Shown piece after piece: positions 817 through 4,300 of a stretch of 4,300 nucleotides of DNA. Location: IMG/VR virus record IMGVR_UViG_2534681662_000009; one strand, written 5' to 3'. The position numbers and the translations under genes were made by a program. This DNA is from a virus (taxonomy: Duplodnaviria > Heunggongvirae > Uroviricota > Caudoviricetes). Within the stretch, counting starts at the first letter, position 1, and every line of letters begins with the position of its first letter. The notes under the pieces were generated by a model. It was not told the DNA's origin, ran no database searches, and worked only from the letters and a program-made list of their open reading frames with translations.

Positions 817-1161
817 ATGGCAGTAAAGATTTCAGGTGTACTGAAAGACGGCACAGGAAAACCGGTACAGAACTGCACAATCCAGCTGAAAGCAAAACGT
901 AACAGCACCACGGTGGTGGTGAACACGCTGGCATCTGAAAATCCGGATGAAGCCGGGCGTTACAGCATGGACGTTGAGTACGGTCAGTACAGCGTTATTC
1001 TGTTGGTGGAAGGATTCCCGCCGTCACATGCCGGGACCATCACCGTGTATGAAGATTCCCGACCCGGTACGCTGAATGATTTTCTCGGTGCCATGACGGA
1101 GGATGATGCCCGTCCGAGGCACTGCGCCGTTTTGACTGATGGTGGAAGAGGTGGCGCGTAA
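817..1161 (+). CDS. stf: Stf N-terminal fragment (frame 1); authentic coding to about 1116, then out-of-frame tail to TAA at 1159-1161
   Basis: Track ORF 811..1161 begins at GTG 811, but the homologous start is ATG 817. Residues up to MTEDDARP match lambda Stf; the following [14 protein letters not shown] is frameshift read-through. Confidence 0.75.
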
Positions 1162-1208
1162 CGCGTCCGGGTGGCACAGAACACGGCAGCCGCGAAGAAG
1201 TCAGCCAG

Positions 1209-2170
1209 GATGCCAGCACATCAGCCCGTGAGGCGGCAACCCATGCGACTGATGCTGCAGGCTCAGCACGCGCAGCCAGCACGTCAGCCGGACAGGCCGC
1301 GTCGTCGGCTCAGTCAGCATCTTCCAGCGCAGGAACGGCATCAACAAAGGCCAGTGAAGCATCGAAAAGTGCTGCTGCTGCAGAGTCCTCAAAAAGCGCG
1401 GCAGCTACCAGTGCCGGTGCGGCGAAAACGTCAGAAACGAATGCGGCAGCGTCACAACAATCAGCAGCCACTTCTGCATCCACCGCGACCACGAAAGCGT
1501 CAGAAGCAGCCACTTCAGCACGGGATGCGTCGGCTTCAAAAGAGGCGGCAAAATCATCAGAAACGAACGCAGCATCGAGCGCCAGCAGCGCAGCTTCCTC
1601 GGCAACGGCGGCAGGCAATTCCGCGAAGGCGGCAAAGACGTCTGAGACAAACGCCAGGTCTTCTGAAACGGCAGCGGGACAGAGCGCCTCGGCTGCGGCA
1701 GGCTCAAAAACAGCGGCTGCGTCGTCTGCCAGTGCAGCGTCAACAAGTGCCGGGCAGGCCTCAGCCAGTGCCACCGCCGCCGGAAAATCGGCAGAAAGCG
1801 CCGCATCGTCTGCTTCAACAGCCACAACGAAGGCTGGCGAAGCCACTGAACAGGCCAGCGCAGCAGCGAGGTCTGCTTCCGCAGCGAAGACATCCGAAAC
1901 GAACGCGAAAGCGTCGGAAACCAGCGCAGAATCCTCAAAAACGGCTGCCGCATCGTCCGCCAGTTCGGCGGCGTCATCGGCATCATCTGCGTCTGCTTCA
2001 AAAGATGAGGCGACCAGACAAGCGTCCGCAGCGAAGGGCAGCGCCACGACGGCATCCACGAAGGCGACAGAGGCAGCTGGCAGTGCGACGGCGGCAGCTC
2101 AGAGCAAAAGTACGGCGGAATCCGCGGCAACGCGCGCTGAGACAGCGGCAAAACGGGCAGAGGATATTGC
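1209..2170 (+). repeat. Low-complexity Ala/Ser/Thr-rich coding region (fibre shaft) with degenerate repeats of AAK(T/S)SETNA
   Basis: The protein is dominated by A, S and T. The motif AAKTSETNA / AAKSSETNA recurs at about 1422-1448, 1548-1574, 1632-1658 and 1887-1913. The region is GC-rich with strong codon periodicity. Confidence 0.65.
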
Positions 2171-3974
2171 ATCCGCCGTGGCGCTTGAGGATGCGAGCAC
2201 GACGAAAAAGGGGATAGTACAGCTCAGCAGTGCGACCAATAGCACTTCCGAGTCACTGGCGGCAACGCCAAAAGCCGTTAAGGCCGCGTATGACCTGGCT
2301 AACGGGAAATACACCGCACAGGATGCAACGACAGCACAGAAAGGGATAATCCAGCTAAGCAGCGCGACCAACAGCACGTCTGAAACGCTGGCGGCAACGC
2401 CAAAGGCAGTAAAATCAGCCTATGACAATGCAGAGAAACGTCTGCAGAAAGACCAGAACGGCGCTGATATACCCGATAAGGGACGCTTCCTGAACAACAT
2501 TAACGCGGTCAGTAAAACAGACTTTGCTGATAAGCGTGGTATGCGTTATGTGCGGGTTAACGCTCCTGCAGGTGCAACATCTGGAAAATATTACCCTGTT
2601 GTTGTTATGCGTTCTGCTGGCTCAGTAAGCGAACTGGCATCAAGGGTCATTATCACCACGGCAACGCGAACCGCAGGCGATCCGATGAATAACTGCGAGT
2701 TTAACGGATTTGTTATGCCTGGTGGCTGGACTGACAGGGGGCGTTATGCTTATGGAATGTTCTGGCAATATCAAAACAATGAACGAGCCATCCACTCAAT
2801 AATGATGAGTAATAAGGGCGATGATTTGCGCTCTGTGTTCTATGTTGATGGCGCTGCTTTCCCTGTTTTTGCGTTTATCGAAGATGGCCTGTCAATATCC
2901 GCACCTGGTGCTGATCTCGTTGTTAATGATACGACCTATAAGTTTGGGGCAACAAATCCGGCGACTGAATGTATCGCGGCGGACGTTATCCTTGATTTTA
3001 AGAGTGGGCGTGGTTTTTATGAGTCTCATTCGTTAATCGTTAACGATAACTTGTCGTGCAAAAAACTTTTTGCCACAGACGAAATTGTAGCGCGTGGTGG
3101 TAATCAGATTCGAATGATAGGTGGGGAGTATGGGGCATTATGGCGTAATGATGGCGCTAAAACTTACCTGCTGCTTACCAATCAAGGTGATGTTTATGGT
3201 GGATGGAATACATTAAGACCGTTTGCTATTGATAACGCAACCGGCGAACTGGTTATTGGAACCAAGCTGTCTGCAAGTCTGAACGGTAACGCATTGACAG
3301 CAACAAAGCTGCAAACGCCAAGACGGGTTTCTGGTGTTGAGTTTGATGGTTCCAAAGATATTACTTTAACCGCCGCGCATGTGGCTGCTTTTGCCAGAAG
3401 GGCAACGGATACATATGCCGATGCGGATGGTGGCGTTCCCTGGAATGCCGAATCAGGCGCTTATAATGTCACCCGCTCTGGCGACAGCTATATTCTGGTT
3501 AACTTCTATACCGGAGTCGGAAGTTGCCGGACCTTGCAGATGAAGGCGCATTACAGAAATGGTGGTCTGTTCTACCGTTCTTCAAGAGACGGTTATGGTT
3601 TTGAGGAAGACTGGGCAGAAGTTTATACCTCGAAAAATCTTCCACCAGAAAGCTACCCAGTCGGCGCACCAATCCCGTGGCCATCAGATACCGTTCCGTC
3701 TGGTTATGCCCTGATGCAGGGGCAGACTTTTGACAAATCTGCTTACCCGAAACTTGCAGCCGCTTATCCGTCAGGCGTGATCCCTGATATGCGTGGCTGG
3801 ACGATTAAGGGCAAGCCCGCCAGTGGTCGTGCCGTATTGTCTCAGGAACAGGACGGCATTAAATCGCAACCCACAGCGCCAGCGATCCAGTACGGATTTG
3901 GGACGAAAACCACATCGTCGTTTGATTACGGCACTAAATCCACGAATAACACTGGTGCGCATACCATAGTTTAA
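1209..3974 (+). CDS. stf: Stf central fragment (frame 3): Ala/Ser/Thr-rich shaft, tandem fibre repeats, central module and start of conserved C-terminal region
   Basis: Frame 3 is open 1140..3974 with no ATG/GTG/TTG before GTG at 2178 (track ORF 2178..3974). Homology to Stf resumes in this frame at about 1209 ([13 protein letters not shown]...[14 protein letters not shown]) and runs through ...[11 protein letters not shown] at about 3962. Confidence 0.8.
2208..2426 (+). repeat. Tandem direct duplication (period 132 bp, 44 aa) of a tail-fibre repeat motif inside stf
   Basis: [29 protein letters not shown] (2208-2294) is repeated as [29 protein letters not shown] (2340-2426). The nucleotide copies are diverged at synonymous positions (roughly 80% identity by eye). 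Confidence 0.75.
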
Positions 3975-4132
3975 GTGGCAGCACGAATGCAGCTGGTAAT
4001 CACAGCCATAGAGATGGCCGTCGATTTAACCCCAGTGTTTTTAAAGATACTTATCAATATGGTTATACAAGCTCAGGTCAAAATACCTGGGGTGTACAAG
4101 GCTCAGTAGGTATGTCTACGGGGTGGTTAGCA
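3965..4132 (+). CDS. stf: Stf C-terminal fragment (frame 2)
   Basis: Frame 2 reads [56 protein letters not shown], continuing from GAHT in frame 3 after one apparent base loss in ACC(C)AT at about 3964. Confidence 0.6.
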
Positions 4133-4300
4133 ATACCAGTACAGATGGTAATCATAGCCACTCACTGTCCGGCACAGCAGCATCTGCAGGTGCACACGCG
4201 CATACTGTCGGTATTGGTGCTCATACGCACTCCGTTGCGATTGGTTCACATGGACACACCATCACCGTTAACGCTGCTGGTAATGCGGAAAACACCGTCA
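4129..4300 (+). CDS. stf: Stf C-terminal fragment (frame 1), runs off window end
   Basis: Frame 1 reads [57 protein letters not shown], matching the His-rich lambda Stf C-terminal region; there is no stop before the window end. Confidence 0.7.

Follow-up and report, generated by a model that had tools for sequence, protein, structure and literature searches.

Clustered one-base deletions in a prophage side-tail-fibre gene of an Escherichia coli draft genome are probably a consensus artefact of collapsed repeats

The DNA analysed here, referred to as the window, is a stretch of 4300 nt. By exact-protein look-up it was found to be contig AQDT01000026.1 of assembly GCA_000355595.1 in its full length (4300 bp), and the protein record for a product of this contig names the organism as Escherichia coli 2788150, an ETEC isolate. 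This isolate comes from the ETEC collection from Bangladesh published by Sahl et al. (Sci Rep 2017; PMC5469772), the genomes of which were sequenced on an Illumina HiSeq 2000 with 100-bp reads and assembled de novo with Celera Assembler; assemblies made with SPAdes 3.6 are also reported there (PMC5469772). Both ends of the contig lie inside lambdoid tail genes, in J at the start and in the conserved 3' part of stf at the end.

The plus strand carries J, lom and stf in this order. Only the 3' end of the tail-tip gene J is present (1–85); the gene was called at 1–85, and the end of the coding sequence at position 1585 of the NZ_CP180597.1 locus corresponds to position 85 of the window. It is followed by an intact lom gene (153–752) coding for an Ail/Lom outer-membrane beta-barrel protein of 199 aa, which matches PF06316 over its full length (E 1.7e-125). 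The side-tail-fibre gene stf starts with the ATG at 817 and runs off the contig end at 4300, as seen from the open reading frames, the gene calls and the Pfam matches; its stop codon lies about 12 codons beyond the contig end. The contig stops before tfa, and in the closest intact relative tfaQ is the next gene. Two GC-rich hairpins on the plus strand, each followed by a T run, bracket lom, one downstream of J (104–123) and one downstream of lom (779–800); both resemble intrinsic terminators, and the hairpin count is not above that of shuffled sequence.

Two further features were noted within stf. Over the Ala/Ser-rich shaft there are spurious long open reading frames, one on the minus strand at 1310–2059 and one in frame 1 at 1171–2217, which is out of frame with stf; the antisense frame at 1310–2059 encodes 249 aa and is called as a gene in the gene table of the collection. 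A direct repeat (2199–2290 and 2340–2430) with the motif KKGI(V/I)...(S/T)LAATPKAVK(A/S)AYD, in which 11 residues lie between the two written parts, corresponds to two PF03406 fibre repeats.

In the deposited sequence stf is split into three fragments, 817–1161, 2178–3974 and 4123–4300. An earlier reading made from the letters of the window had placed consecutive Stf segments of the 5' part in different frames, with EALRRF in frame 3 and the following segments in frames 2, 1 and 3. A three-frame translation reproduced these segments and gave a frame path of 1, 3, 2, 1, 3 for stf: the upstream part in frame 1 ends with ...MTEDDARP, and EALRRF is followed by 11 residues in frame 2, 12 residues in frame 1 and 13 or more residues in frame 3. 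When stitched together, the segments equal the intact Stf protein WP_350425673.1 residue for residue; the comparison was made with this protein, and the expectation that the stitched peptide lacks no residue was borne out.

A global alignment of the window with the intact stf of NZ_CP180597.1 (3531 nt) showed 42 substitutions and, on the side of the window, nine gaps of 1 nt; insertions were absent. The window is not collinear with intact homologues. In the 5' part the gaps fall after positions 1115, 1134 (equally 1135), 1169 and 1208, in agreement with the four one-base losses that had been proposed from the frames, and the proposal that there are deletions only, without insertions, holds across the whole alignment. 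The region 1114–1211 had been taken for the whole lesion, which proved too narrow, as five more one-base deletions were found after 3868, 3884, 3902, 3964 and 4131. The deletions thus form two clusters, four in 94 bp and five in 264 bp, with none in the remaining ~3.9 kb. When the region 1060–1260 (201 bp) was compared with thousands of complete E. coli genomes, 201 of 205 positions agreed and the four gaps were the sole differences; for the region 3840–4300 the best match among complete E. coli genomes was 461/466, again with the gaps as sole differences. The observed frame breaks are far beyond chance.

At each of the four sites of the first cluster, all on the plus strand, the allele counts among stf copies were determined. 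The first missing base (1115..1116) belongs to a CCN codon of Pro, where the alleles are G (107), T (65), A (3) and C (1). Because the alleles carry G, T, A or C at this place, the lost base cannot be named, and the loss cannot be written as a change from CCGGAGG to CCGAGG as had been done before. The second (1134..1136) belongs to a GAR codon of Glu with A in 120 and G in 58 copies, the placement being ambiguous within GA|C. The third (1169..1170) lies in GCG/GTG with C in 136 and T in 42 copies, and the fourth (1208..1209) in AGC/AGT with C in 115 and T in 61 copies.

The second cluster starts with the missing bases 5–7 (after 3868, 3884 and 3902, within 3868..3903 on the plus strand), at which the alleles are C/T (39:29), T/C (11:57) and T/G (10:58), respectively. 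These three losses jointly restore the frame, leaving 11 codons garbled. The eighth missing base (3964..3965, plus strand) lies at a site with four alleles, and its loss makes a TAA stop codon at 3972–3974. For the ninth (4131..4132, plus strand) the alleles are T (12) and G (6).

The contexts of the nine sites in NZ_CP180597.1, with the base missing from the window in brackets, are CC[T]GA, GA[A]CT, CG[C]GG, AG[C]GA, CA[C]AC, CG[T]AT, GG[T]AC, AC[T]CA and GC[T]AA. Several of the first four losses had been thought to sit in short homopolymers. For the most part they do not, as their contexts are CC[T/G]GA, GA[A/G]CT, CG[C/T]GG and AG[C/T]GA; a base run is touched at site 2 (AA) and possibly at site 1 (GG, if a G was lost), and the other seven of the nine sites lie outside any run.

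Restoring one base at each of the nine sites gives 1164 open codons without a stop, and no other stop that would be a sign of decay was found across these 1164 codons. The repaired protein is identical to the intact 1176-aa Stf at 1151 of 1164 residues (99%). In the Pfam search PF08400 was matched at positions 1–134 of 134 (E 3e-70), and the further matches were PF03406 twice, PF21446 and PF07484. The repaired Stf hence comprises the N-terminal PF08400 domain, two fibre repeats, a Gp34-like trimerisation domain and a collar domain. Several full-length Stf homologues at NCBI (P0006, P0007, P0010 and P0011) go under the name of 'short-chain fatty acid transporter' or of 'phage tail tape measure protein', which looks like propagated misannotation.

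The deleted sites were then placed on the variation between stf copies. About 200 stf-bearing loci, taken from IMG/VR and from complete genomes, made up the panel, and 165 of the sequences were unique. All nine deleted sites are polymorphic among these 165 unique stf copies, with minor-allele fractions of 0.11–0.41, and the four deleted sites of the first cluster are the most polymorphic positions of the panel within 1070–1215. A minor-allele fraction of 0.11 is reached by 6% of the background sites around cluster 1 and by 25% of those around cluster 2. In a stratified permutation with 200,000 draws, the minimum minor-allele fraction seen at the nine sites was never reached, and their mean was reached once. 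The same coincidence is seen between two single genomes: NZ_CP180597.1 and NZ_CP010157.1 are both intact at 1045–1297, and they differ there only at the four deleted positions (T/G, A/G, C/T and C/T). The stf of NZ_CP010157.1 is itself annotated as 'frameshifted', with one extra G near window position 3332 relative to both the window and NZ_CP180597.1.

The affected segment is commonly present in more than one copy. Of 5,426 complete E. coli genomes, 4,644 contained the region 1060–1260, at 11,163 places in total (median 2 and maximum 13 per genome), and co-resident stf copies can match fully over 1069–1226 while diverging on either side. Two same-genome paralog pairs from IMG/VR (L142/L171 and L106/L200) showed no difference at the four sites. 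Breaks in short-read assemblies are very common in this segment, as is apparent from the large number of N-terminal Stf fragments that the protein database lists as 'partial'. The centre of stf (2500–3700) is typically single-copy; it contains no deletions and matches a finished genome, that of strain CH4804, at 100%. CH4804 was considered as a full-length template and rejected, since despite this match in the centre it carries a shorter stf allele.

The deletions recur in other draft assemblies. Besides the window, exactly two assemblies encode the 114-aa truncated product of the first fragment, AQDH01000065.1 and AQDO01000076.1, the accessions of which are of the same series as AQDT; the protein record for the 114-aa product comprises three accessions and names E. 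coli 2866550, an isolate that also belongs to the published collection (PMC5469772). AQDH and AQDO carry another stf allele, which has 92% identity to the window across 2.4 kb, and this allele shows the four deletions of the window together with several others at variable sites.

The 43-kb contig AQDH01000065.1 was compared with two finished ETEC genomes and showed 23 further deletions of 1–2 nt and no one-base insertions. One of these lies in K (5053), ten lie within 200 bp of J (6762–6960) with one more near the end of J (9285), and 11 lie in the 5' part of stf (10299–10621); J is split into two open reading frames. The first 5 kb of the contig contain no such deletions. A minor-allele fraction of at least 0.1 was found at 15 of the 23 deletions, compared with 19% of the background sites, and the other 8 of 23 are at weakly variable or invariant panel sites. 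Compared with ETEC H10407 and O114:H49 90-9280, J of this contig also has gaps of 63, 21 and 12 nt and an insertion of 15 nt. Real allelic variation could account for these larger differences, and so could additional mis-assembly.

Outside this accession series the picture is different. The deletions of the window were found in none of the 5,426 complete E. coli genomes, and a 47-mer containing the first two deletions had no match in IMG/VR, in which its intact form occurs at least 120 times. A protein search turned up one truncated product (P0003) that is shifted at the same first two sites. It comes from the unrelated E. coli assembly QIBM01000036.1 (GCA_013423045.1), whose genes are all broken up, the single-copy gene prfC included; there 5352 nt of single-copy DNA align to a reference stretch of 5388 nt, so that about 36 nt (~0.7%) are missing net. 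This match says little because the assembly is generally noisy, with deletions everywhere, and it surfaced only through selection on the out-of-frame tail.

From these results we consider the frameshifts to be a consensus artefact, produced when paralogous repeats were collapsed in a short-read overlap–layout–consensus assembly, and not a case of gene decay; we put the probability of this reading at about 0.87. Lambdoid tail genes are usually present in two or more prophage copies per E. coli genome. The affected segments, one where the conserved N-terminal domain of Stf ends and one in the conserved C-terminal His-rich repeats, are those that lambdoid prophages have most closely in common, and they are likely to be near-identical between co-resident copies. 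If copies differ there by a few percent, within the error tolerance of the assembler, 100-bp reads from different stf copies could enter one multiple alignment. At each SNP between the copies the two alleles would probably come to stand in adjacent, separate columns, each of them half empty. A base caller working column by column may then pick a gap in both columns, and exactly one base would be lost per SNP. The model presupposes that 2788150 contains another stf copy in which the alternative bases stand at these sites; we infer this copy, and its alleles are assumed from the population data. It has been described that the Celera consensus works column by column and that mixed alleles can yield a consensus found in no read (Levy et al. 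2007; PMC1964779). When the literature was searched for a conversion of SNPs into deletions by Celera Assembler on Illumina reads, only this general column-wise mosaicism was returned. On this model the loss of one base per inter-copy SNP is a property of the software and not of the organism, with a signature that we did not find documented.

This model explains jointly the clustering of the deletions, their same size and sign, their position at variable sites, their recurrence across drafts of different strains and the otherwise undamaged gene. Against it, other variable sites of the contig were called as bases, which the model leaves unexplained, and the 8 of 23 AQDH deletions mentioned above fall on weakly variable or invariant sites. 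The sequence-only reading had already preferred an artefact to real decay and had named a confusion of paralogous prophage stf copies as a possible cause. Both points find support, as the deletions sit exactly on sites that vary between stf copies and recur in sibling drafts, while neither complete genomes nor IMG/VR contain them. Its more general attribution to sequencing or polishing error could not be upheld: the genome was made from Illumina reads with Celera Assembler, involving neither long-read polishing nor a chemistry prone to homopolymer errors, and no more than two of the nine sites border even on a dinucleotide run.

The main alternative is that the deletions are real and that stf is a pseudogene inactivated by multiple one-base losses, like the stf of lambda PaPa or the decayed fibre genes of cryptic prophages. 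We regard this as unlikely. Frameshifted stf genes do exist in finished genomes, an example being the annotation in NZ_CP010157.1, and the presence of the same four deletions in three separate assemblies could reflect inheritance or exchange between prophages. Decay would, however, have to account for nine independent lesions that are all –1 and all located on sites variable between copies, in a gene that once repaired is free of stops or other damage. The lesions are seen in none of the 5,426 complete genomes and nowhere in IMG/VR, but only in drafts of one accession series and there on alleles that are just 92% identical, and similar clusters disrupt J and K of the sibling AQDH contig.

It is still less probable that the deletions are homopolymer-type errors of raw sequencing or polishing, produced by the chemistry without any collapse of repeats. 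That every error is a deletion would fit such an origin, as would the deletions at the first two sites in the noisy and unrelated QIBM01000036.1. Homopolymer error is nevertheless not the explanation because only one or two sites lie in a dinucleotide run, seven or eight of the nine being outside any base run. Illumina HiSeq sequencing is not prone to indels, the errors are tightly clustered, with ~3.9 kb of the contig and 5 kb of the AQDH contig free of them, and random chemistry error would not strike variable sites in nine of nine cases. The least probable reading in our view is a real mutational footprint: stf copies of co-resident prophages would have recombined, and the repair of every heteroduplex mismatch would have cost one base, leaving a trail of –1 frameshifts at the inter-copy SNPs. 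Among biological models it alone would also place the deletions at sites variable between copies. We know of no mismatch-repair outcome that deletes one base per heteroduplex mismatch, and this outcome would be needed at every mismatch of the tract; moreover, the footprint is never seen in complete genomes with several stf copies and instead tracks a single series of draft assemblies. Programmed ribosomal frameshifting was considered as well and rejected, since homologues are read through in one frame, four successive shifts would be needed and there is no slippery heptamer at 1110–1116.

The question at stake is whether this prophage is able to make side tail fibres. The real stf in the bacterium is most likely intact and the breakage most likely the work of the assembler, as the deletions almost certainly arose when reads from near-identical prophage copies were merged. 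The same error affects two other drafts of the series, in which stf, J and K are fragmented by one-base deletions at inter-copy SNPs. The fragments have by now entered the protein databases, for example as EMW42814.1 and EMW42817.1. Such fragments could inflate counts of pseudogenes, create spurious clusters in pan-genome or BSR analyses and mislead predictions of host range that are based on fibre genes. The main value of the finding is thus a caution regarding pseudogene and gene-content calls from drafts with this error. Should the recombination reading be true after all, the deletions would represent a so far undescribed outcome of exchange between co-resident prophage fibre genes.

Compared with known systems, stf of the window is an ordinary member of the lambda Stf/PF08400 family in the usual J–lom–stf arrangement. 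Like lambda Stf, StfR and other prophage homologues it follows J and lom and has a full-length PF08400 domain, an Ala/Ser-rich shaft and two PF03406 repeats; the closest intact protein, of 1176 aa, is 99% identical and its gene is followed by tfaQ. It differs from the family in that, as deposited, it is in pieces owing to nine one-base gaps and that its stop codon is cut off, the contig falling short of it by about 12 codons. As for lambda PaPa, Hendrix and Duda reportedly described in 1992 that stf of this laboratory phage carries a frameshift caused by a one-base change, resulting in separate open reading frames and a phage without side fibres. The two cases are alike in that a change of frame splits stf into separate open reading frames. 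In lambda PaPa there is a single lesion that was verified experimentally in the phage stock, whereas the window has nine lesions, which lie at sites variable between copies and are seen only in the drafts of one series.

A likeness of another kind exists to the case of Levy et al. (2007; PMC1964779), in which reads of non-identical copies were likewise merged in one alignment; as expected of a collapsed repeat, the contig of the window is short and bounded by repeats. The case of Levy et al. concerned allelic mosaicism in a diploid genome assembled from Sanger reads (PMC1964779), whereas here Illumina reads of paralogous prophages from a haploid genome would have been merged, and the probable outcome is the conversion of each SNP into a one-base deletion.
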